From the NCBI GenBank assembly GCA_020850995.1, contig JADZDP010000016.1, positions 420 to 64,419 on the forward strand: 64,000 bases of DNA, read 5' to 3'. This document shows positions 2-8,996 of this stretch, one piece after another. A model generated the notes under the pieces. The model worked only from the letters and a program-made list of their open reading frames with translations, did no database searches and had not been told where the DNA came from. Position 1 is the stretch's first letter, and each line of letters opens with the position of its first letter. Both the position numbers and the translations under genes were made by a program. The DNA comes from Deltaproteobacteria bacterium. Its GTDB lineage: Bacteria > Myxococcota > UBA727 > VGSZ01.

Positions 2-637
2 GAGGCCCTCGTTCACGTCACCGGTCTCGGGGTCGTCCAAGAGCTCCACGCCGGCCAGGGCGAGGTAGCGGTTGGTGTACTCTTCGCGGCTCGGCGTCGA
101 CAGGTCGTCGACGCTGACGCGCATGTCTTCTGGCATGGGCACGTGCGACTCGTCCTGCGACAGGCGGCGCTGCGGATCGGCCTCGTCGCGGCCGACGCCG
201 CCGTGGCAGTCGACGCACGCGACGTACGACCACGCGTGCGAGTTCTCGATGCCGCCCGAGGTCGACGAGGTGGCGAGGCCGTGGCACGCGATACAGGCTG
301 CGTCTTTGGCGCAGATGGTGGCGTTCGGGTTGGCGTCGCAATAGTCGCCGCCCTGGATGGGGGGCTCGTCTTCGCCTTCGCCGCCGCCTCCGTAGCCGTC
401 GCACTCGTGGCAGCGCCACTGGCCGACACCGTTGCCGCCGACGACGCAGTCACAGGGCAGGGAGCCGTCCGTGCAGGTGTACGGCAACTCGGGGATGTCG
501 CCGCAGTCTTCAGCGGGCACCTGATCCGGCGGCGGCGCCGGCGGGACCGGTTCTACCGGTGGCGGACAGCCCGTTCCGATGGCTGCCAACAGCCAGCTTG
601 CAGCGACCAAGAGCACCGAACATCTTAGTTTCCTCAC
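2..637 (-). CDS. Multiheme c-type cytochrome lipoprotein, 3'-truncated by the window edge
   Basis: Not in the ORF track because it has no stop in the window. Manual translation from GTG at 637 (GGAGG 6 nt upstream): MRKLRCSVLLVAASWLLAAIGTG-C lipoprotein signal, Pro-rich linker, Cys-rich segment, then CIACH and CVDCH. The frame stays open to the edge. Confidence 0.85.
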   Translation of the reverse strand, partial: MRKLRCSVLLVAASWLLAAIGTGCPPPVEPVPPAPPPDQVPAEDCGDIPELPYTCTDGSLPCDCVVGGNGVGQWRCHECDGYGGGGEGEDEPPIQGGDYCDANPNATICAKDAACIACHGLATSSTSGGIENSHAWSYVACVDCHGGVGRDEADPQRRLSQDESHVPMPEDMRVSVDDLSTPSREEYTNRYLALAGVELLDDPETGDVNEGL

Positions 638-977: not shown

Positions 978-3599
978 TCAGCGTGGCGTGTGGTGGCAGG
1001 CCGCGCACTTCTCGCTTTGGAACTCGTAGCCCGGCACGCCCTGGTGGTGCTCGGCCTCGATGGTCTCGTCGTGGCAGGTGGCGCAGATGACGGGGACGCC
1101 GACGCAGTTGCCCGTGAAGCGCGTGCCTCCGAGGTCGGTGTGGCACTGGCGGCAGTTGACCGCCCGGTGCGCGCCCGTGGAGATGGGGAAGCACACGTCG
1201 TGGGCCGTGAACTGGGCCGGCAGGAAGGTGGCGGCCACGTGGCAGTCGCGGCAGGAGCCGCTGGAGAAGGGCGGGCTGCGGTGATCCGTGGTGGCCTGGT
1301 TGGCCGCCACGACGTCGCGCTGGTGGCAGATGCCGCAATCGACCGCTGCGCGCGCGAAGGTGCGCTCGCGCTTCTCGAGGTGGCACTCGTCGCAGGGCAG
1401 GGCCGCGTGGCGGCCCGTGAGCGGGAAGTTCCCCATGCGGTGTGCGTCGACGTTGAAGCCCGGCGCGGTGAAGCCGTCGGTGCTGTGGCACGCCGCGCAG
1501 GCCAGGCCAAACTGCTGGCCATGCACGTCGGTGTGGCAGCCGGCGCAGGTCATGGGCACGGGCTTGGTGGGATCGCTGCCGTGGCAGATGCCGCAGCGGT
1601 TGGCCAGGTGCTTGCCCGTGAGCTCGAAGCCCGTGAGCTGGTGCTCGAATCGCGCCGGTGACCACCCGGTTGCCTGGTGGCACTCGCCGCAGTGCACCTC
1701 GGGCCCCGGTGACGCGGGCGCGACGTCTGCGGCGGTGGCCGCGGCCGGCTTTGGCGGCACGAAGCGGTCGTAGGCGCCCTTGTGTTGGTCGTCGTGGCAG
1801 GTGGTGCAGGCGGCGGGCAGGGGGCGGTAGCGGGCGAGCTTGGTGCCCTTGTTGTCGAGCGTTGGGTGGCAGCGCTCGCACTTGGCCTCTTGGTGCTTGC
1901 CCACCAGCGCGAAGCTCGTCTGCTTGTCGTGCTCGAAGGCGCCCGGCTTGAAGGCCTTGGTGGAGTGGCAGTCGCTGCAGTCGCGCGGCTTGGTGGCCGC
2001 GGCGGTGAATTGACCCACGTGGGCGTCGGCGTGGCACGACGAGCACGCGTAGGGCAGCAAGCGATAGGGCGTGGCCACTACCTCGTCGCCCTTGGGCGTG
2101 GGCGGCACGTGGCACGAGGCGCAGGTGGCCTCGGTGTGCTTGCCCGTGAGCGGGAAGCGGCTGTTGTCGTGCTTGAAGGTGGTCTCGGCGAAGGCCTTGG
2201 TGGTGTGGCAGTCGACGCATGCCTTCTTGGCGGCCCGCGTATCGGGCGGCTCTGCGGCCTTCTGGAATTGTCCGAGGTGCGGGTCGTCGTGGCACAGGTC
2301 GCAGTCGGCCTGCTGCACCTTGCCCTCGACCACCGCGACGACGTCGGGCATGCGAATGCGCGCCTGGCTGACCAAGAGCTGGCGCCCGCGCCGCGTGGCC
2401 TCGGCCTTGTCCTTCGGGCTGGTCTTCTGCAAGAGGCGCTGGTCGGGCTTGTGGCACTGCTTGCACGCCACCGTGCGGTGCGAGCCCTCCAGCGGGAAGT
2501 GCGTGGTCTCGTGCAGCTTGACGTCGAGGAGCACGGGGATGAAGCCGGTGACCTGGTGGCACTTCTCGCAGCGCACCGAGCCCTCGTCGAGCGGCATCTG
2601 GCCGAAGTGCGCGTCGAAGTGACAGTCGGAGCAGCGCCCGTACTTGACGCCCTTGTACTTGACGGGCTCGCTGCCGAAGGGGCCATGGCACAACTTGCAT
2701 GCCACGGACTGATGCTCGCCGCGCAGCGGGAAGCCGTATTTGTCGTGGAAGCTCGCGTTGATGCCCTTCTCGTTGATCGAGTTCCAGTCCTTGGGTGTAT
2801 GGCAACGCGCGCAGTTCGAGCCGTACGCGCCACGGTGGGGATCCTCGTGACACGCCACGCAGGACGCGTGCTCGATGTTCTTCACCTTGAGGTAGGTCTT
2901 GGCGCGCGGCTTGGGGAAGTCGGGCGCGGGCTTGGCGTCGGTGAGGGTCTCGTGGCAGTCACCGCACTTGACGTCTTTGTGCTTGCCGATGAGGGGGAAG
3001 CCACCCTCCTTCGGCTTGTTGTGGTCGAAGTCGGGCGCGTCCTTGAACTTCTCCGCCGTGTGGCATTTGTCGCAGCTCTTGCCCACCTGCCCGCGGTGCT
3101 CGTCGAAGTGGCAGGCCGCGCAGCGCTTGGACACGCCGAGGTAGGTCTCGCGGCCCACCTCCTTGACGAGGTTCTTCACGTAGGCGTCCTCGATGCGACG
3201 CAGCTCGTGGCAGTCCTTGCACTTCTGCTCTTTGTGCGGCCCGGTGAGCGGCCAGCCGGAGAGCCGGTGATTGAACTCGTCGCGCGAGGGCTTCCACTCG
3301 ATGATGCTCGCGTTGCGCCCGCGGTGCTCCTGGTGGCACTCGGCGCACTTCTGCGACTTGATCGACGAGTGGTAACCGGCGCCCGCCTCGAGGCGCTTGT
3401 TGATCTCGTCGTGGCACTCGAGACAGCGCTCGTCGCTGTGGCTGCTGCCCTCGATGTGGCACTTGGAGCAGCTCCGCATGCCCTCGAGCGAGGCGTGCGC
3501 CTTCGAGAGCGGCCCCGGGCTGAACACCTGCGCGCGCGCCACGCTCGCGCCGACCAGCGCCAGCGCAGCCACCAGCATGGCGGGTACGGCGAGGCGCAT
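978..3599 (-). CDS. 30-heme c-type cytochrome (cytochrome c3-like repeats), Sec signal peptide
   Basis: 873 aa. 30 CxxCH motifs counted by hand, arranged as repeated triheme modules. Signal peptide ending in AxA. Confidence 0.95.
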   Translation of the reverse strand: MRLAVPAMLVAALALVGASVARAQVFSPGPLSKAHASLEGMRSCSKCHIEGSSHSDERCLECHDEINKRLEAGAGYHSSIKSQKCAECHQEHRGRNASIIEWKPSRDEFNHRLSGWPLTGPHKEQKCKDCHELRRIEDAYVKNLVKEVGRETYLGVSKRCAACHFDEHRGQVGKSCDKCHTAEKFKDAPDFDHNKPKEGGFPLIGKHKDVKCGDCHETLTDAKPAPDFPKPRAKTYLKVKNIEHASCVACHEDPHRGAYGSNCARCHTPKDWNSINEKGINASFHDKYGFPLRGEHQSVACKLCHGPFGSEPVKYKGVKYGRCSDCHFDAHFGQMPLDEGSVRCEKCHQVTGFIPVLLDVKLHETTHFPLEGSHRTVACKQCHKPDQRLLQKTSPKDKAEATRRGRQLLVSQARIRMPDVVAVVEGKVQQADCDLCHDDPHLGQFQKAAEPPDTRAAKKACVDCHTTKAFAETTFKHDNSRFPLTGKHTEATCASCHVPPTPKGDEVVATPYRLLPYACSSCHADAHVGQFTAAATKPRDCSDCHSTKAFKPGAFEHDKQTSFALVGKHQEAKCERCHPTLDNKGTKLARYRPLPAACTTCHDDQHKGAYDRFVPPKPAAATAADVAPASPGPEVHCGECHQATGWSPARFEHQLTGFELTGKHLANRCGICHGSDPTKPVPMTCAGCHTDVHGQQFGLACAACHSTDGFTAPGFNVDAHRMGNFPLTGRHAALPCDECHLEKRERTFARAAVDCGICHQRDVVAANQATTDHRSPPFSSGSCRDCHVAATFLPAQFTAHDVCFPISTGAHRAVNCRQCHTDLGGTRFTGNCVGVPVICATCHDETIEAEHHQGVPGYEFQSEKCAACHHTPR

Positions 3600-3601
3600 G
3601 C

Positions 3602-6310
3602 TCAGCCGCCTCCCTGGAAGAAGAAGGCGCCGAACCCGTAGTACGCGGTCACCGCGACGTGGGCCGCGATCAGCACCACCATGAAGATGGCGGTGACGAC
3701 GTGGAACACCAGCCAGCTTCGGAAGATGCGCTTGAGCGTGGCGTAGAACGAGATCTGCATGCGCGCGCGCTGGATCTTCTCGAGCGAGTCCTTGAAGAAG
3801 TTGAACTGCTTGTCGTCGTTGAACAGCGGCCGCGCCTGATCGATCTGCTTGATGAGGGTCTGGCGCGTCTTGGTCTCTTTCATCATCGCCTGCGCCAGCG
3901 TCCGTTCGCGGGGCTGGATGGCGGCGAGGTCGAGGAGCTGGGTCACGGCCTTGACGTTCTTGGTCTGTTGGATGTGCGGCTGCAACACCTTCTCCATGTC
4001 GTTGACCTGCTCACGCAGATCATTGACCGCCAGCATCTTGCCCGCCTGCGCGGGCACCAGGCCGAACAGGAAGCGGCCGAAGATGCCGGTGGCGACGACG
4101 ATGGCGAGGGCCACCCAGGTCCACACCGCCAGCAGGTTGTTGACCAAGAAGGCCGCGTGGAAGGCGATGACCAGGGGGCTCATGATGCCGACGAACATAT
4201 GGAAGGTGAGCCAGGTGCGGATGGAGGCCTTGCCCTTGAGCGGCCGCCAGCGCTTGCGCAGGGCGTAGATGAAGTTGGCCAGCATGAACACGGTGGCGCC
4301 GACGCCCACGCCGTGGCCCCACAGCCCCGCCGGTTTCAGCAGGTCGTGCAGCGGCGCCTTGTTGCGCTCGTCGAGCGGCAGCCAGTAGTACTCGGAGCCG
4401 AGCAGGTAGCAGCCAACGTTGATGAGCACGCCCATGGCCGTGAGCGCCAGCGCCAGGCGCGTGCGCGTGCGCTTCTCCATGTCGGCCTTGGTCATGCCCT
4501 TGCCGCCGGCGACCTTCTCCTCGCCGTGGTACTTGCGCGACGTCACCTTGATGGAGGTGAGGAACTGCACGGGCAGCTCGCCGCCGATGGACACGATGAC
4601 GTCGTCGTTGGCCAGCACCGTCTCCTTGCCGTCGGTCTGCACCTCGGGCACGGCCACCTTGTGCAAGCCCGAGCCCACGCGCGCGGCGCGGTTGCCACCG
4701 TCGATGGCGTCGAGGGCCTTGGCGCTACCGCGCGCGATGACGTTGACGATGCCCTCGCGCCACAGGCCGGTGCGCGAGCGCGCGGCGCCCGGGGCCTGCC
4801 CTGGTGCCGGTGCGCCGGCTGCGCCCGCACCGCCGTGCAGCGCCGAGCCGCCACGGAACGGGTTGGCGCCCGCGCCCGCCGCCTTGCCGGGCAGGCCGGT
4901 GTTCGCGATGGTGAAGCGCTGTTTGGCGGCCGCCGCCGCCGCATCGACGTCGTCGACGCGGATGTCCATCACGGTCTTGGCGTTGGCGCGCGCGTCTTCC
5001 TCACCCACCAGCATGGACGCGTCGACCACGGCGGTGCCCGGGCGCGGCGGTCCCTTGGGGGCCTCGGGCGCCTTGGCCTTGTCGCCGCCCTTGCCCTTCT
5101 TGTCGTCGTCGCCAGAGGGGGCCAGGCGCACCGTCTTGGCGTCGATGCCCGTGACCTTGGTGCTGAAGTACGCCTTGATCTTGCCTTGATCGATGAGCGC
5201 CTTGATGTTGTCGCGGTTCCGCGGCTTGCAGCGCGAGAACGCGCCTTGCCGATAGGAGATGCTCACCTTGGCGGTGCTCTCCTCGGCGAGCTGGACGGCG
5301 GCCTCGACGGCGGAGTCGCCGCCGCCCACCACCAGTACGCTGCGCCCGTGGTACTGCTCGGGGTCGACGAGGCGGTAGGTGACCTTGGGGAGCTCCTCGC
5401 CCGCGCACTCGAGCTTGCGCGGTGAGCCGCGCAGGCCAATGGCGAGCACCACCGCGGCGCAGGCGATGCGCTCGCCGGCGGCCGTGACGGCGGTGAGGCG
5501 CGGCGCGTCCCCCTCCACGCTCACCACCTTCTTGCCTTCTTCGACGGCGAGCTTGTTGGACGAGATGACCTGGTAGATCTCACCCATCAGCTCTTCTTTC
5601 GAGAGGAGCTGGCGGCCGAAGGGGCCGAAGTTCGGCATCTTGACCTGCTCGGTCATCACCACCTTGCCGCGCGGGTAGTGCGCGATGGCGCCGCCCACGC
5701 TCTCCTGCTCGAGGATGCGCACGGACAGGCCGTTCTCTTGGCAGGAGATGGCAGCGGCGATGCCCGCCGGGCCTGCGCCCACCACCACCACGTCGGTGAA
5801 GTTGGGGCCGGCGTTGCTCTTCTTGACCTTTCCCTTGATGAACTTGCCGGCCACCAGGCCCTGGTAGAGGGCGTTCTTGATCAGGCCCATGCCGCTGATC
5901 TCGCCCACGATGAACACGCCGGCGCGGCTCGACTCGAAGTTCTCGTCGGTCTCGGGCAGATCGATGCCGCGCTCGGAGGTGCCGAACACGAGCTTGATGG
6001 CGCCCACCGGGCACTCGATGTCGCAGCGGGCGTGACCGATGCAGTCGGCGGCGTCCACCAGCGTTGCCACGCCGTCGACGACGCCGATGATGTCACCCTC
6101 GGGGCAGGCCTTGATGCAGGAGAACGAGCCCACGCACAGCGTGGGGTCGATGACCGGGTGCAGCGAGAGCGGCACCAATTGCCCCTCGGCCACCGCCAGG
6201 CGCAGGCGCTCGGCGCCCTCGCGTTCGGACTTCTTGCGCTGCATCAGCAGCACGATCACGGCCGCGGCCATGATCGCCAGGACAATTCCGGAGATGATCA
6301 GCTCGGTCAT
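3602..6310 (-). CDS. Membrane-anchored 2x[Fe-S] / FAD-NAD(P)H oxidoreductase (TrxB-like) fused to a His-rich multi-TM domain (putative heme b)
   Basis: Start re-assigned to MTELIISG (ATG 6310). N-terminal TM; CVGSFSCIKACPE and CIGHARCDIECP; GAGPAG and GGGDSA dinucleotide motifs; C-terminal TM helices with GHGVG, WLTFH, IAFH, WLVFH, IAAH. Confidence 0.9.
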   Translation of the reverse strand: MTELIISGIVLAIMAAAVIVLLMQRKKSEREGAERLRLAVAEGQLVPLSLHPVIDPTLCVGSFSCIKACPEGDIIGVVDGVATLVDAADCIGHARCDIECPVGAIKLVFGTSERGIDLPETDENFESSRAGVFIVGEISGMGLIKNALYQGLVAGKFIKGKVKKSNAGPNFTDVVVVGAGPAGIAAAISCQENGLSVRILEQESVGGAIAHYPRGKVVMTEQVKMPNFGPFGRQLLSKEELMGEIYQVISSNKLAVEEGKKVVSVEGDAPRLTAVTAAGERIACAAVVLAIGLRGSPRKLECAGEELPKVTYRLVDPEQYHGRSVLVVGGGDSAVEAAVQLAEESTAKVSISYRQGAFSRCKPRNRDNIKALIDQGKIKAYFSTKVTGIDAKTVRLAPSGDDDKKGKGGDKAKAPEAPKGPPRPGTAVVDASMLVGEEDARANAKTVMDIRVDDVDAAAAAAKQRFTIANTGLPGKAAGAGANPFRGGSALHGGAGAAGAPAPGQAPGAARSRTGLWREGIVNVIARGSAKALDAIDGGNRAARVGSGLHKVAVPEVQTDGKETVLANDDVIVSIGGELPVQFLTSIKVTSRKYHGEEKVAGGKGMTKADMEKRTRTRLALALTAMGVLINVGCYLLGSEYYWLPLDERNKAPLHDLLKPAGLWGHGVGVGATVFMLANFIYALRKRWRPLKGKASIRTWLTFHMFVGIMSPLVIAFHAAFLVNNLLAVWTWVALAIVVATGIFGRFLFGLVPAQAGKMLAVNDLREQVNDMEKVLQPHIQQTKNVKAVTQLLDLAAIQPRERTLAQAMMKETKTRQTLIKQIDQARPLFNDDKQFNFFKDSLEKIQRARMQISFYATLKRIFRSWLVFHVVTAIFMVVLIAAHVAVTAYYGFGAFFFQGGG

Positions 6311-6332
6311 CGGGTGGTCTTTTGCTGGGCCC

Positions 6333-8042
6333 TCAAAGGGAGCCGGTGACGGACACATCGGCCATGCCGTTGGTCGGCGTGGCCCGTACTTCGCCCCCGA
6401 GGGACGGCAAGGCTTGCGAGCCAAACAGGCGCGTGCGCACCGAGAGCCACGGCAGGATGGGCGCGTCCGCCCACACGCTCATGCCGAGCTCGCGATACCA
6501 ATCGCGAGGCGCCTCGCTCTCGTAGTAGGTGGCGCGGGTCGCGAAGCTCAGGAAGGGGAAGCGCAGGCGCGCCGACACCCACGCGTTGCGGCCGGGGATT
6601 CCGCCCGGCACCTCGACGTCGTTCTTGATCTTGGTGAGCCCGAACTCCTCGATGTAACCGAGCTGCATGCCGCCAGCGTCGCCGAACATGGTGGGCAGCT
6701 CGAGCTGCGGGCCCACGAAGGCGCGCGTGGAGTCCGATTGGGTGTTGTACGCGACGCTGCCGCTGGCGCCGAAGCCGAACCACGGCACCGGGCGGTAGGC
6801 GGTGAGCGCGCTCAGGTCGTGGCCGCCCTGGGCCCGCGGGATACTGGCGCCGTTGAAGTCGAGATCGAGGGGCGGTGCTGCGTTGTAGCGGTAGCCGGTC
6901 CACAGCGTGAGCTCGGGCACGACGCCGAGCCCGGCGTCGACGCTGGCGGCGTCGATGGAGGGCAGCATGTCGGCGGTGCCACCGATGCCGGTCTTGATGG
7001 AGCCGCCCACGTTGCCGACGCCGCGCCAGTACACCTGCGTCTGGGCCAGCGCCTCGCCACGCAGGTACTGGAAGTCGGGCGAGCTGATGACCCCCAGGCG
7101 CGCGCGCGGCACCACGGAGACGCCCTCCATGGGGCGCAGGTCGACGCCCACGTAGGCGCCGCCCGCCAGGCGATCGAGCGAGGGCGCGATGGTGATGAGG
7201 TCGGGGATGGCGCCAGCGTAGAGGCCGACCTCGGTGGTGTCGTCGAGGAAGCGCAGGCCGGCCTGCGCGCCGTCGAGCAGCAGCACGCCGGGCACGTTCT
7301 GGGCGTAGAAGCGACCGAGCTGGCCCACCACGAAGCCGTCGCGCATGCCCACCGACAGGCCCCAGACGTAGAGCTCGACGAGCTCGCCCGGGCGCGCGCG
7401 CTGGTTGTTGGGCGCGATCAGATCGCTGTTCACCCGGAACGAGGCGCTGGTGAAGAACTGCGGCGCGGCGCTGAAGCCCACGTCGAAGTAGCCGTCGACC
7501 GAGGTGCGCCCATAGGTGCCGTTCGGCGTGGTGGAGGCGTGCCACAGCTCTTGGCGCAGCGTGGTGCGGCCCTGGAGCGCGATGCCCGCGCTCGAGACGT
7601 CGTGCTTGACGCGCTCCACCGGGAGCTGCGCGAGCTGTTCGCGCAGCTCGCGCTCTTGGCCCGCGCTCATCATGGGCGGCAGCACCTTGGGCTCTGGCTT
7701 GGCCGCCTCGGGCGGCGGCGTGAACGCGAAGGTGAACTTGTCGCCCGGCGCGGCGCGATCGCTGCTGCACAGGGCCGCGGTGGGCGACACCTCCACCACC
7801 TGGCAGGGGCCCACCGGCTTGCTGCGCCGCGAGAGCTGCAATTCTTGGCCCACGGCGACGCCCTGCTTGGCGCCCACGTCGAGGTAGGCGGCCTTGGCCG
7901 TGGTGTACGTGACCTGGCCGTCGGTGGCGGCGGCCGTCAGGCTGACGATGGCGGAGAGCCCGACGACGCTGCTGAGCACCAAGAAACTCCGCGGACCAAG
8001 GGGTGGGTGGTCATGTTGCGACAGACCCCCCGTCCGGATCAA
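6333..8042 (-). CDS. Probable outer-membrane beta-barrel with a small N-terminal FlgT_C-like domain
   Basis: 569 aa, TTG start (exact start uncertain). Hydrophobic signal-like segment; YLDVGAKQGVAVGQELQLSR domain; alternating amphipathic strands up to the C-terminal ADVSVTGSL. Lies between cytochrome genes. Confidence 0.7.
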   Translation of the reverse strand: MIRTGGLSQHDHPPLGPRSFLVLSSVVGLSAIVSLTAAATDGQVTYTTAKAAYLDVGAKQGVAVGQELQLSRRSKPVGPCQVVEVSPTAALCSSDRAAPGDKFTFAFTPPPEAAKPEPKVLPPMMSAGQERELREQLAQLPVERVKHDVSSAGIALQGRTTLRQELWHASTTPNGTYGRTSVDGYFDVGFSAAPQFFTSASFRVNSDLIAPNNQRARPGELVELYVWGLSVGMRDGFVVGQLGRFYAQNVPGVLLLDGAQAGLRFLDDTTEVGLYAGAIPDLITIAPSLDRLAGGAYVGVDLRPMEGVSVVPRARLGVISSPDFQYLRGEALAQTQVYWRGVGNVGGSIKTGIGGTADMLPSIDAASVDAGLGVVPELTLWTGYRYNAAPPLDLDFNGASIPRAQGGHDLSALTAYRPVPWFGFGASGSVAYNTQSDSTRAFVGPQLELPTMFGDAGGMQLGYIEEFGLTKIKNDVEVPGGIPGRNAWVSARLRFPFLSFATRATYYESEAPRDWYRELGMSVWADAPILPWLSVRTRLFGSQALPSLGGEVRATPTNGMADVSVTGSL

Positions 8043-8051
8043 CCTGCGCGA

Positions 8052-8996
8052 TCAGCAGGGTCCCTTATTGCTCGGGGTGCAGCCTTCACCGTGCGGGGAG
8101 CTGTGGCAGGCGGCGGTGCAGTTGATCTCACCGTAGTTGATGGACCACTCCTTTGGCGGGTCGAGCCGCTGGGTGTGACAAACCCTGCAGTGCGCGGGTC
8201 CCCAGTGGTTCGTGCCGTACCCCGCCGAGATGCCCGTGAGGCCGTTGTGGAAGGTCTCGAAGGGCGGGGGGAACACGCTCGAGAGCGGCGTGGTCGAGTG
8301 GCACTCCCGGCAGCCGTTCGTGTCGTCGTTGGCGTCGTACATTGGCGCGATGGTGCTGGCGCTGTGCGCCGTGTTCGTCAGCACCCCGTAGTTCTGCAGG
8401 TGGCACTCGCTGCACAGCGTCAGCGACGGATCGCCGCCGCCATCGCTATGGCAGCTCTCGCACGAGACGCCGCCGTGGGTGTCGCCGGCGCCTGGATCGA
8501 CGGGAAAATACGGTGCGTGGTCTGCGGCCGAGAGGTTCCAGTTGGCCCCCTCGCCCTCGCCCTCGCCCTCGCCGTCGCCGCCACCGCCGCTCTGGCAGTA
8601 ACGCTGGCCGCAGGAGTGGCAGCCGTAGCAGTAGCTCTCTTCGGCACGGTACGCCGCTCCGCGCGGCAGGTGCTTGGTCCTCAGGGCCTCGGTCCCGGTG
8701 ACGGTGTTATGGCAGGCGACGCAGTTGAATTCCGCGAAGCTCGCCCTGCCACCGTGGCAGGCCTCGCAATCGAGCGTCCCAGCGCCGACGACCGCACGAT
8801 TGAGCGCATGCTTGTCGCCCGGCCCGATGGGGAAGAGCTCCGCGTGCCCAACGGTGGCGAAGTCGTCGGGGAAGCCCGTGGTCATCGGGGGTGCCGGACC
8901 CTCCTCGGGCGTGCAGGCCGCCGCAGCCACGAGGGCCGCGACGGGCGCAGCGACGAACAGGAGAATCGCCACGGGCAGCAGGGAGCGCGTGCGCAT
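8052..8996 (-). CDS. Multiheme c-type cytochrome lipoprotein (7 CxxCH + 1 CX3CH)
   Basis: Lipobox AAAA-C; CEACH, CVACH, CYGCH, CESCH, CSECH, CRECH, CRVCH, CTAACH. Confidence 0.9.
   Translation of the reverse strand: MRTRSLLPVAILLFVAAPVAALVAAAACTPEEGPAPPMTTGFPDDFATVGHAELFPIGPGDKHALNRAVVGAGTLDCEACHGGRASFAEFNCVACHNTVTGTEALRTKHLPRGAAYRAEESYCYGCHSCGQRYCQSGGGGDGEGEGEGEGANWNLSAADHAPYFPVDPGAGDTHGGVSCESCHSDGGGDPSLTLCSECHLQNYGVLTNTAHSASTIAPMYDANDDTNGCRECHSTTPLSSVFPPPFETFHNGLTGISAGYGTNHWGPAHCRVCHTQRLDPPKEWSINYGEINCTAACHSSPHGEGCTPSNKGPC
8548..8577. repeat. In-frame hexamer tandem repeat encoding a Gly-Glu linker
   Basis: 4x CCCTCG plus CCGTCG, encoding GDGEGEGEGEG on the minus strand. Confidence 0.85.

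Follow-up and report, generated by a model that had tools for sequence, protein, structure and literature searches.

The window, that is, the whole stretch of 64,000 nucleotides that was analyzed, contains a gene for a 30-heme c-type cytochrome. The genes around it and the elements at its start are as follows.

2..637, minus strand: truncated gene of a downstream lipoprotein cytochrome; the window starts within it, and the contig ends 419 nt further
978..3599, minus strand: 30-heme c-type cytochrome gene, 873 aa, stop codon at 978-980; the ORF list matches exactly
3531..3599, minus strand: Sec signal peptide of the 30-heme protein, residues 1-23 (A-R-A before Q), from reading of the translation and an AF2 helix at 4-21
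3602..6424, minus strand: upstream partner with an N-terminal TM helix, Fer4, an FAD/pyridine-nucleotide oxidoreductase and a C-terminal membrane domain, from Pfam and motif reading
3609..3614, minus strand: Shine-Dalgarno sequence GGGAGG of the 30-heme gene, read from the sequence, within the 3' end of the upstream gene
6333..8042, minus strand: outer-membrane beta-barrel protein with an N-terminal beta domain (39-106), one helix and about 22 strands (154-568), from AF2 and Foldseek
8052..8996, minus strand: lipoprotein multiheme cytochrome, candidate surface partner, 314 aa, with seven CxxCH and one CxxxCH

The translation of the 30-heme gene contains 30 CxxCH motifs, 62 Cys, 66 His, and 7 Met, and a search of it for CX3-4CH motifs found none. 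There are about 28 residues per heme, which leaves scant space for a non-heme core. The signal peptide (MRLAVPAMLVAALALVGASVARA, followed by Q) has no lipobox, so the mature protein is expected to be soluble and periplasmic. The upstream partner is a 940-aa ORF with a likely start near 6310, which would give a protein of about 900 aa. Its TGA stop codon (3602-3604) ends 2 nt ahead of the ATG of the 30-heme gene (3597-3599); this gap, together with the Shine-Dalgarno sequence inside the upstream gene, indicates that the 30-heme gene is translationally coupled to the membrane-protein gene. Module copy number was also checked in homologues: exactly 30 CxxCH motifs were found in 86 of the 120 best homologues, and 20 in another 27.

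The 30-heme protein was divided into the following parts after its signal peptide.

3333..3530, minus strand: N-terminal triheme cap, module 1 (residues 24-89; hemes 1-3), dissimilar outside CxxCH, its own clade on a long branch
1965..3332, minus strand: five canonical c7-type triheme modules, M2-M6 (residues 90-545; hemes 4-18), from the module alignment, masked z-scores, profile and Pfam Cytochrome_C7
1770..1964, minus strand: start of module 7 with two of its three hemes, 19 and 20 (residues 546-610), up to CTTCH-D-D-Q-H606-K-G, where free-standing 20-heme homologues stop
1692..1769, minus strand: junction loop at the fusion/fission point, between hemes 20 and 21 (residues 611-636, DRFVPPKPAAATAADVAPASPGPEVH); the insertion is variable
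981..1691, minus strand: C-terminal decaheme unit (residues 637-873; heme 21, M8, and the diverged M9 and M10), which matches a separate secreted 10-heme protein of most relatives

Splitting the protein after each third CxxCH gave ten segments of 64-117 aa. Modules 2-8 share the pattern F-x-H ... FPL-x-G-x-H-x4-CxxCH ... CxxCH-x-D-x-H-x-G ... CxxCH, in which the spacer before the first CxxCH is x4 and not x3, as the first-pass annotation had it. With the CxxCH motifs masked, modules 2-9 still aligned pairwise above motif-preserving shuffles (z mostly 3-15, with a few pairs at 2-3), so the repeat exceeds what the heme motifs would give by chance, and the expectation that the modules align as homologous repeats was borne out for these eight. 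Module 1, which had been set apart as an N-terminal triheme cap, indeed had no significant similarity to the rest beyond the motifs (z -1.2 to 2.4); its conserved His are 35 and 77, plus His 92 just past the cap. In the module tree, each positional module formed its own clade across homologues, and modules 9 and 10, which are without the D-x-H-x-G signature, had long branches. Judged from its sequence, the protein begins with a cap, continues with seven canonical modules, and closes with two that have diverged. The earlier description of ten tandem triheme modules stands as regards homologous c7-type units, but module 1 is dissimilar, modules 9 and 10 are diverged, and the boundary between hemes 20 and 21 cuts module 7.

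The family to which these modules belong was searched for in Pfam, NCBIfam, and the PDB. Pfam PF14522 matched five stretches of the 30-heme protein with 110.3 bits (cut-off 24.8), and NCBIfam TIGR04257 (nanowire_3heme domain) scored 20.1 bits, below its cut-off of 40. The module profile matched all four domains of GSU1996 (3OV0) with an E value of 3.9e-11, which points to this Geobacter dodecaheme c7-polymer as the closest solved relative of the repeat. Only the module profile reached GSU1996; phmmer with the whole 30-heme protein against PDB sequences gave no significant match. With regard to the N-terminal cap, Pfam Paired_CXXCH_1 was found in some homologues of the 30-heme protein. Two extra Cys of the decaheme unit, C803 and C832, are invariant in 87 homologues. 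The last module had been likened to those of the lipoprotein at 8052, and it did obtain the highest profile score of the ten modules against this protein (15.0 bits, z 3.7 over motif-preserving shuffles); however, the shuffle maximum was 16.3, and in pairwise comparison module 1 (z 8.3) was better than module 10 (z 6.0), so that a specific likeness is marginal.

All 30 CxxCH motifs are invariant in the 87 homologues, down to about 37% identity. The same alignment holds 30 conserved non-motif His (29 invariant, plus H557 conserved in at least 90%), and a search across it for a conserved Met found none. The data bear out and reinforce the three extra His per three-heme module noticed in the first pass and support, at the level of sequence, the assignment of all 30 hemes as bis-His ligated. 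In the module-profile alignment, the Met of the GSU1996 sequence CHNDKMAF stands opposite the invariant His of CxxCH-x-D-x-H. GSU1996 has one His-Met heme per domain, heme IV, whereas the 30-heme protein is apparently all bis-His, with the invariant D-x-H His replacing that Met. The strict count of 30 hemes and 30 His makes it an attractive all-bis-His model for long-range heme conduction.

What is chiefly new is that the protein has a natural boundary after heme 20. The 72 related loci comprise 52 that are split into a 20-heme gene and a 10-heme gene and 20 that are fused, with at least 6-7 switches between the two forms on the tree. The 20-heme homologues align to residues 1-614 of the 30-heme protein, and all 52 free 20-heme C termini read ...CxxCH-x-D-x-H-x-G-x-F..P before the stop. 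The decaheme unit is 40-46% identical to free-standing decahemes, and the split decaheme carries its own signal peptide. In the 87 fused homologues, the junction loop is A/P/T/G-rich and varies from 11 to 93 aa; in the present protein its residues 621-631 have an AF2 pLDDT below 50. The stop codon and new signal peptide of the split loci fall at the position of this loop. Down to about 36% identity, the heme count remains 30 or 20+10. From these comparisons, the 30-heme gene is read as the fused version of a 20-heme and 10-heme pair common in myxobacteria, and repeated fusion or fission at one exact point gives a testable prediction on how two cytochromes join into one wire. A more general, open-ended "3k+2" rule was considered for representative matches, which cluster at 20, 23, 26, and 29 hemes. 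It was rejected because the CxxCH-x-D-x-H end was found in only 3 of the 22 proteins with 23 hemes and 2 of the 44 with 26, and none of those proteins had an extra CX3-4CH that would turn these classes into 21, 24, or 27 hemes.

The distribution of His across this boundary was analyzed. The tally of extra His is 21 for the 20-heme part and 9 for the 10-heme part, and it is equal in the fused and split forms. Module 7 has hemes 19 and 20 and its three distal His in the 20-heme part, and heme 21 belongs to the decaheme part, so His606 is most likely the ligand of heme 21. Near the junction loop, no His was found in 59 of the 87 fused homologues. In 41 of 52 free-standing decahemes, a His stands about 8 residues ahead of the first CxxCH, in the N-terminal tail (G-H-x5-T-x-CxxCH), and it could serve as the heme 21 ligand instead of the His of the partner. 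The His arithmetic was weighed as proof of ligation in trans, was weakened by this tail His, and now has the standing of a hypothesis only. Inter-protein His-Fe ligation occurs between subunits of OmcS filaments. We tentatively suggest that the myxobacterial 20-heme and 10-heme proteins might form one continuous 30-heme wire, in which a split c7 domain would be completed across two polypeptides. The 20-heme tail (...CxxCH-x-D-x-H-x-G-x-F..P) would give a distal His to the first heme of the decaheme, and a rod of about 30 nm, extrapolated from GSU1996, would hard-wire an NAD(P)H-oxidizing inner-membrane flavo-heme protein to the barrel. If so, this would be a cytoplasm-to-surface conduit bypassing both the quinone pool and diffusible periplasmic carriers, and the 30-heme gene would be its covalently fused version.

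The genes around the 30-heme gene were compared with those of the related loci. A Fer4-flavin-diheme-b membrane protein stands directly upstream in 61 of 66 loci (17/19 fused and 44/47 split); in the translation of the upstream partner found here, the membrane domain has two W-x3-H-x13-H motifs (WLTFH-x13-H and WLVFH-x13-H). The AF2 model of the barrel protein had a pLDDT of 83.4 and a pTM of 0.68, and Foldseek against the PDB gave 313 matches at E<=0.001, the top 50 listed being nearly all outer-membrane barrels (porins, ushers), with no MtrB chain among these 50. Of the 32 split loci that could be assessed, 30 have the barrel gene no more than 3 kb downstream of the gene for the decaheme. 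Adjacency of the barrel gene is rarer in the fused loci, where it is downstream in 5 of 16 and anywhere within 10 kb in 9 of 16. In Anaeromyxobacter, 8-9-heme homologues of the 8052 lipoprotein stand between the decaheme and barrel genes. The downstream lipoprotein cytochrome has a homologue of 80% identity in locus L005, again downstream of the 30-heme gene. The genome from which the window comes also has a second, paralogous locus made up of the same parts. Synteny, AF2, and Foldseek thus agree on a conserved set around the 30-heme gene, consisting of an inner-membrane redox protein, a real outer-membrane barrel, and heme lipoproteins, in line with the earlier reading. The first-pass annotation had also proposed that the C-terminal module may dock with the surface cytochrome through the barrel. 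The gene order in the split loci does make the C-terminal part the one nearer to the barrel gene, but the separable unit is the whole decaheme (hemes 21-30) and not the last triheme module; that the decaheme docks inside the barrel may be proposed by analogy.

Of 401 genomes sampled from the phylum, 111 contain the decaheme unit, and the family occurs in myxobacteria of soil, sediment, peat, and sludge. The named relatives that were found belong to Myxococcota and a few Planctomycetota MAGs; when cluster names of relatives were compared with the named PCC3 hosts, only "hypothetical protein" from MAGs labelled Planctomycetota appeared. The split 20+10 version is present in cultured Anaeromyxobacter dehalogenans strains, which are Fe(III) reducers (PMC4245776); the set of strain 2CP-1 comprises the 20-heme protein, the decaheme (ACL66187.1), a 9-heme protein, and the barrel. 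The metal-reduction conduit of these cultured strains is poorly defined. Our literature searches found no description of a myxobacterial 30-heme or 20+10 system; the Pcc cluster that Shi et al. 2014 described for Anaeromyxobacter is another locus, of two genes (PMC4245776).

Taken together, we consider it probable that the 30-heme protein is a soluble periplasmic electron-transfer wire, a single polypeptide whose 30 hemes, low-spin and bis-His, form ten c7-type triheme groups, and the fused form of a two-protein system between an inner-membrane enzyme and an outer-membrane barrel. Electrons from a cytoplasmic NAD(P)H-type donor would enter the flavin and FeS centers of the upstream partner, cross the inner membrane over its two b hemes, and pass to the 20 hemes of residues 1-610. 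The 10 hemes of residues 637-873 would then carry them into or through the barrel to heme lipoproteins on the cell surface. The 20-heme and decaheme parts would act as one uninterrupted heme chain, the seventh c7 module straddling the junction. The protein-protein contacts and the direction of electron flow are what we infer for this scheme.

The 30 hemes might instead act mainly as an electron capacitor, storing periplasmic charge and buffering respiration when acceptors are scarce, with no fixed bridge from membrane to membrane. GSU1996, the closest solved relative, and related Geobacter c7 polymers have been discussed as electron stores (PMC10138318, PMC13591261), the paper on the A. dehalogenans genome suggests that many-heme cytochromes serve as capacitors (PMC2330069), and storage is one option for PCC3 cytochromes in Hoover et al. 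(PMC9900912). However, a store should accept any copy number, whereas here the heme number stays at 30 or 20+10 to about 36% identity, and the tight coupling to an upstream membrane redox protein and a downstream barrel points to defined partners at both ends. We therefore regard a mainly storing function as unlikely. Storage and conduction by 30 hemes are mutually compatible.

The same wire could also run in reverse, importing electrons from extracellular Fe(II), minerals, or reduced humics, with the flavoprotein end reducing NAD(P)+ or another cytoplasmic acceptor. Multiheme chains are reversible, and PCC3 clusters were discovered in Fe(II) oxidizers and modelled as uptake conduits (PMC5566968, PMC9900912). 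However, bis-His c7-type hemes have low potentials (PpcA, -125 to -154 mV; GSU1996 window, -279 to +31 mV; PMC13591261), which suit export from NAD(P)H better than uphill import, and the cultured carriers reduce Fe(III), so import as the physiological direction is given a low probability.

The 30-heme protein was modelled with AF2 at full length without hemes, with a pLDDT of 80.8 and a pTM of 0.45. Foldseek with this model against the PDB returned one meaningless match (E 7.6); 3Di has difficulty with folds that are packed with hemes and poor in secondary structure. The homology to linear GSU1996 and the heme density suggest that the protein is linear and extended. A compact or folded-back assembly, with modules packed side by side as in 16-heme HmcA-type cytochromes to make a globular hub for several periplasmic partners, is very improbable: HmcA and 16-heme cytochromes are matched weakly and in part (NF045713, 56.3 bits against a cut-off of 400; 1z1n, 2e84) and the low pTM leaves the global arrangement uncertain, but the best structural relative is linear, high local confidence with low pTM is expected from an elongated chain of small domains, the module linkers are short and of fixed length except at two loops, and the AF2 models reported for periplasmic cytochromes of PCC3 are long and mostly linear (PMC9900912).

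The preferred reading, a periplasmic wire, was compared with known systems. The 30-heme protein resembles GSU1996, GSU0592, and GSU2210 of Geobacter sulfurreducens in being one periplasmic polypeptide of tandem c7-type triheme domains of about 65-90 aa with a very low residue-to-heme ratio; GSU1996 forms a linear heme array with edge-to-edge gaps of 3-5 Å, and GSU2210 has 27 hemes in nine c7-type domains (PMC10138318). A crescent-shaped, linear heme array is a mark of this family. The 30-heme protein departs from the family in its distinct N-terminal cap, in the divergence of its last two modules, in its constant count of 30 hemes, and in the 20/10 fusion/fission point, and its gene is linked in a conserved way to those for an inner-membrane redox protein and a barrel of the outer membrane.

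In gene content, the locus resembles the PCC3 clusters, in which a porin-like barrel and an extracellular MHC are encoded together with a repetitive, very heme-rich periplasmic MHC and an inner-membrane protein that carries two W-x3-H-x13-H motifs (PMC5566968, PMC9900912); all four kinds of component are present here. The PCC3 periplasmic MHC has itself been hypothesized to be a periplasm-spanning wire (PMC9900912). Its heme numbers rise in steps of three (21, 24, 27), and some clusters have two periplasmic cytochromes, not one (PMC5566968, PMC9900912). The PCC3 hosts are Alpha-, Beta-, and Gammaproteobacteria, mostly iron oxidizers, whereas the present family is found in Myxococcota and has 30 hemes or 20+10. 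The PCC3 membrane protein stands alone, with about 300 aa and five TM helices, whereas here the same motifs are fused to Fer4 and a flavin oxidoreductase. The barrel here has about 22 strands; for many PCC3 porins, He et al. 2017 report a much larger number of predicted transmembrane regions, as many as 42 (PMC5566968). Our verdict is that the 30-heme system is probably a variant of the predicted PCC3-type trans-envelope conduit.

The decaheme gene adjoining a barrel gene, plus a lipoprotein cytochrome, also recalls Shewanella MtrA-MtrB-MtrC (6R2Q) and Geobacter Pcc. MtrA is a rod of roughly 10 nm (PMC4245776) that sits inside its barrel, and the C-terminal decaheme unit could, by analogy, play this part. 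As a member of the MtrA family the decaheme was rejected: DmsE/MtrA TIGR03508 scored 53.5 bits (cut-off 192.2) on a different region, residues 262-546, and the decaheme profile matched MtrA 6r2q_A over one stretch only (E 7e-4). The decaheme is thus outside the MtrA family by sequence, and its insertion into the barrel is an analogy only. To our knowledge, extracellular electron transfer is known in detail only for the Shewanella Mtr and Geobacter Pcc/Omc systems. In both, electrons are thought to cross the periplasm on small soluble cytochromes. If the present reading is true, a fixed-length 30-heme chain from inner-membrane enzyme to outer-membrane barrel would be a different solution, one predicted for PCC3 clusters: in contrast with Mtr and Pcc, the decaheme here is covalently or tightly joined to 20 further hemes, and diffusible periplasmic carriers would be unneeded.

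The 30-heme cytochrome gene and its neighbours all lie on the minus strand:

978-3599, minus strand, 30-heme cytochrome gene (open reading frame, 873 aa encoded)
3602-6424, minus strand, membrane protein gene
6333-8042, minus strand, barrel protein gene, 569 aa (predicted model, fold matches)
8052-8996, minus strand, lipoprotein cytochrome with seven CxxCH and one CxxxCH (translation)
2-637, minus strand, lipoprotein cytochrome, partial gene (translation)

The 30-heme protein contained 30 CxxCH motifs and no CX3-4CH motif, with 62 Cys (60 inside the motifs), 66 His, and 7 Met. A Sec signal peptide without a lipobox was found at its N-terminus (site between A-R-A and Q), so the mature protein should be periplasmic and soluble; its residue-to-heme ratio was about 28. 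The source genome amounts to 7.1 Mb in 269 contigs (window, C16:420-64419, G+C about 70%), and its relatives point to an uncultured Myxococcota bacterium; the nearest relative locus, with 87% identity, is labelled 'uncultured Myxococcales'.

Cutting the protein after each third CxxCH gave ten segments of 64-117 aa (modules M1-M10), and exactly three CxxCH fell in each segment in 87 of 87 aligned homologues. All 30 CxxCH were invariant in these full-length homologues (37-87% identity), as were 29 non-motif His, while H557 was kept in at least 90%. The conserved extra His numbered three per module: 35/77/92, 111/122/168, 193/207/255, 285/296/331, and 363/374/441 in M1-M5, and 477/488/527, 557/569/606, 653/664/693, 720/731/773, and 800/811/852 in M6-M10. 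No conserved Met other than the start was found in the 87 homologues, and Cys 803 and 832, extra to the motifs, were invariant in the last module. The all-bis-His ligation suggested in the first-pass annotation is therefore supported at the sequence level by 30 invariant motifs, 30 conserved extra His, and the lack of a conserved Met. The invariant His of C-x-x-C-H-x-D-x-H aligned with the Met of CHNDKMAF in GSU1996, which probably ligates heme IV in each domain of that protein. The D-x-H His lies between motifs 2 and 3, as does His47 of PpcA, and by this position alone would be expected to serve as distal ligand to heme 3 of each module. The gene product is a periplasmic 30-heme protein of c7-type modules with one distal His per heme.

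The modules M2-M8 shared the pattern [ST]-x3-[FW]-x4-F-x-H-x3-5-FPL-x-G-x-H-x4-CxxCH ... CxxCH-x-D-x-H-x-G-Q-F ... CxxCH, and in 70 aligned copies of M2-M8 from ten homologues both upstream His, each of the three motifs, and D-x-H never varied. Module similarity was tested with CxxCH masked and with shuffles that held the motifs in place. M2-M9 were mutually similar beyond the motifs (masked z mostly 3-15), M10 was marginal, and no similarity of M1 to the other modules was found in this comparison, so that the earlier description of ten tandem homologous modules stands for M2-M9 but not for M1, and is marginal for M10. In a tree of 120 module copies every positional module formed its own clade (SH-aLRT at least 95% for M1-M4, M9, and M10; 82% for M7), with M6 and M7 as sister modules and very long branches for M1, M9, and M10. 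The positional clades indicate that the modules were duplicated long ago and that the array has stayed fixed from then on. In the clade of the window protein the module number is able to change but seldom does.

Among the 120 best homologues, 86 had 30 CxxCH and 27 had 20, the latter matching residues 1-614 of the window protein. In 80 loci from reference genomes, the fused 30-heme gene was present in 20, and a 20-heme gene followed by a 10-heme gene was present in 52. In these 52 split loci the stop of the 20-heme gene overlapped or abutted the start of the 10-heme gene, and the 20-heme protein always ended in ...CxxCH-x-D-x-H-x-G-x-F-x-G-F-E-P (52 of 52). The free decaheme has a signal peptide of its own and shared 37-46% identity with the C-terminal part of the window protein (residues 630-873). 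At least 6-7 changes between fused and split were needed on a tree built from 74 rows of the first-20-heme region; the window protein fell inside an all-fused clade of eight (support 100/99). The 30-heme protein is interchangeable with the 20+10 pair, and neighbouring genes that fuse and split recurrently are a classical sign of products acting as one physical unit. Rare 23-heme variants (P0106 and P0116, 689-700 aa) looked like the 20-heme protein extended at its N-terminus by one triheme module.

The boundary between the two parts splits module 7 of the first-pass annotation: hemes 19 and 20, together with all its conserved extra His (557, 569, and 606), belong to the N-terminal part, and heme 21 belongs to the C-terminal part. 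Fused and split forms alike had 21 conserved extra His in the 20-heme part and only 9 in the decaheme part. In the 87 fused forms, hemes 20 and 21 were separated by an A/P/T/G-rich stretch of 11-93 aa, the shortest examples equalled canonical c7 spacing, and residues 621-631 had a pLDDT below 50 in an AF2 model of the window protein built without hemes. On these grounds of length, composition, minimum spacing, and pLDDT, the stretch is read as an expandable loop in a genuine c7 module rather than a chain-breaking spacer. No His was present near heme 21 in 59 of the 87 fused forms, and judged by sequence H606 is the probable ligand of this heme in the fused form. In split forms, heme 21 might hypothetically be ligated across two polypeptides, with the 20-heme tail His reaching into the decaheme; this idea is weakened by the His in G-H-x5-T-x-CxxCH present in 41 of 52 free decahemes.

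The 30-heme gene started 2 nt past the upstream stop, with GGGAGG 9 nt before the ATG. The upstream product combined a TM helix, Fer4, a FAD/pyridine-nucleotide oxidoreductase domain, and a membrane domain with two W-x3-H-x13-H motifs, the signature of PCC3/PCC4 inner-membrane proteins and ferric-reductase-type diheme-b domains (He et al., 2017, PMC5566968). Of the loci that can be judged, 17 of 19 with the fused gene and 44 of 47 with the split pair had a homologue of this membrane protein as the immediate upstream neighbour. A barrel homologue lay downstream of the decaheme gene, on the same strand and no more than 3 kb away, in 30 of 32 split loci. The corresponding figure for fused loci was 5 of 16, rising to 9 of 16 when any position within 10 kb was counted. 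The model of the 569-aa barrel protein (pLDDT 83.4) had a beta domain at the N-terminus, a single helix, and about 22 long strands. A PDB fold search gave 313 matches at E<=0.001, of which the top 50 were nearly all outer-membrane barrels, e.g. porins and FimD/PapC ushers, with no MtrB chain among these 50. Many barrel homologues ended in a beta-signal, ...G-S-F or ...G-T-Y. Genetically, the 30-heme gene is linked to a redox protein of the inner membrane, a large barrel of the outer membrane, and heme lipoproteins. The N-terminal domain of the barrel protein (residues 39-139) was confidently modelled with six strands and a nearly invariant Cys pair, C80/C92, the single helix lying between it and the barrel; on this model, it may act as a plug in the periplasm or serve for docking.

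At C183:5784-16098 the same genome carries a paralogous locus with homologues of the membrane protein (62/55% identity) and the 30-heme cytochrome (47%) and, on the opposite strand, of the barrel (37%); the source organism keeps two copies of the system. The lipoprotein cytochrome at 2-637 had an 82% identical copy at C84:433-1017, likewise at a contig end, and the assembly was probably broken in a duplicated or repetitive cytochrome gene. On another contig (C78:75124-80118) an ORF with 51 CxxCH encoded about 1,550 aa (1,664 aa from stop to stop), including the lipoprotein signal …LALASAC; its N-terminal part resembled the 8052-8996 lipoprotein (31% identity), and its product is a candidate giant surface cytochrome. 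In split loci a 29-heme cytochrome gene often came after the barrel gene (L036, L044, L048, L057, and L059, at about 14.1-18.1 kb). A 60-heme ORF reached the locus end at L075:16022-22504, and a 41-heme ORF was cut by the locus end at L041:1-3504. These 29-, 60-, and 41-heme proteins are probably extracellular partners.

A word-indexed search gave more than 4,000 relatives of the whole window protein, and the pattern CxxCH[FH]DEHR together with a confirmed relative was found at 221 loci in 185,579 species genomes. Of 401 genomes sampled from the phylum, 111 had the decaheme unit (51 of 154 genera); among the 32 genomes from the genus to which the cultured Myxococcus sp. RHSTA-1-4 belongs, only 1 had it. 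The complete split system was present in cultured Anaeromyxobacter (L085 and L086), with an 8/9-heme gene before the barrel gene. In the complete genome of A. dehalogenans 2CP-1 (5,029,329 bp; L085, 3138000-3157900) the genes follow one another in the order membrane protein, 20-heme, 10-heme, and 9-heme cytochromes, and barrel. The 2CP-1 decaheme (ACL66187.1) was near-identical in 2CP-C (ABC82435.1) and strain K (ACG73981.1); the annotation of these decahemes, and of the split system as a whole, goes no further than 'cytochrome c family' or hypothetical.

The 30 hemes are likely arranged as one linear chain, by analogy with GSU1996. The structure paper of GSU1996 reportedly describes, by its title, a 12-nm protein with 12 hemes. 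The decaheme MtrA is a rod of 10.4 nm (PMC4245776). Because both give about 1 nm per heme, 30 hemes would make a chain of about 30 nm, of which about 20 nm would serve the periplasm and about 10 nm the outer membrane. The genes follow one another as the proteins are proposed to do physically: membrane protein, 20, 10, small MHC, barrel. That the number of hemes is fixed speaks more for a wire matched to a distance than for simple storage. The hemes of PpcA lie at -125 to -154 mV, and bis-His c7-type hemes are low-potential (PMC13591261), so electron export from an NAD(P)H-type donor may be favoured.

At the domain level, the closest relatives of the window protein are the Geobacter c7 polymers. 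The Pfam matches were Cytochrome_C7 (110 bits over five stretches), c3 models, and, in part, an MtrC domain. The whole protein had no significant match among PDB sequences, and the module profile matched 3OV0 best (E 3.9e-11, all four domains aligned). This is GSU1996 of Geobacter sulfurreducens, with four c7-type triheme domains, a linear crescent-shaped heme array with edge-to-edge gaps of 3-5 A, and one His-Met heme in each domain; its relative GSU2210 has 27 hemes (PMC10138318). The window protein appears to be without the His-Met feature and misses the GSU1996-type nanowire_3heme model, falling far below every cut-off of this and the HmcA and DmsE/MtrA models of NCBIfam. The module type occurs very widely, in 7,094 representative clusters at E<=1e-3 and in 1,092 at E<=1e-30, and a ten-module array is not extreme, since single proteins of this type have up to 31 matched stretches and 94 CxxCH (P0128 and others, uncharacterised; 2,321 aa). 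The 23- and 26-heme classes were common among the top representatives, P0163 being the only 26-heme cluster with an organism name on its members (MAGs labelled Planctomycetota).

At the cluster level, the closest known system is PCC3 (He et al., 2017, PMC5566968). Its periplasmic cytochromes have 21, 24, or 27 hemes, their AF2 models are 'long and mostly linear', and occasional clusters encode two of them (Hoover et al., 2023, PMC9900912). The periplasm-spanning idea, which was also the central inference of the first reading of this DNA, has been proposed there and is not new. The Anaeromyxobacter strains are Fe(III) reducers. Their published Pcc cluster is another, two-gene locus (porin and 12-heme Adeh_3392), and the split system is absent from that Pcc survey (PMC4245776). 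What is new is the myxobacterial clade of the system, the 30 = 20+10 architecture with recurrent fusion and fission within a c7 module, the strict pattern of 30 hemes and 30 His, the membrane protein fused to a flavoenzyme, and the system's occurrence in cultured strains that reduce metals.
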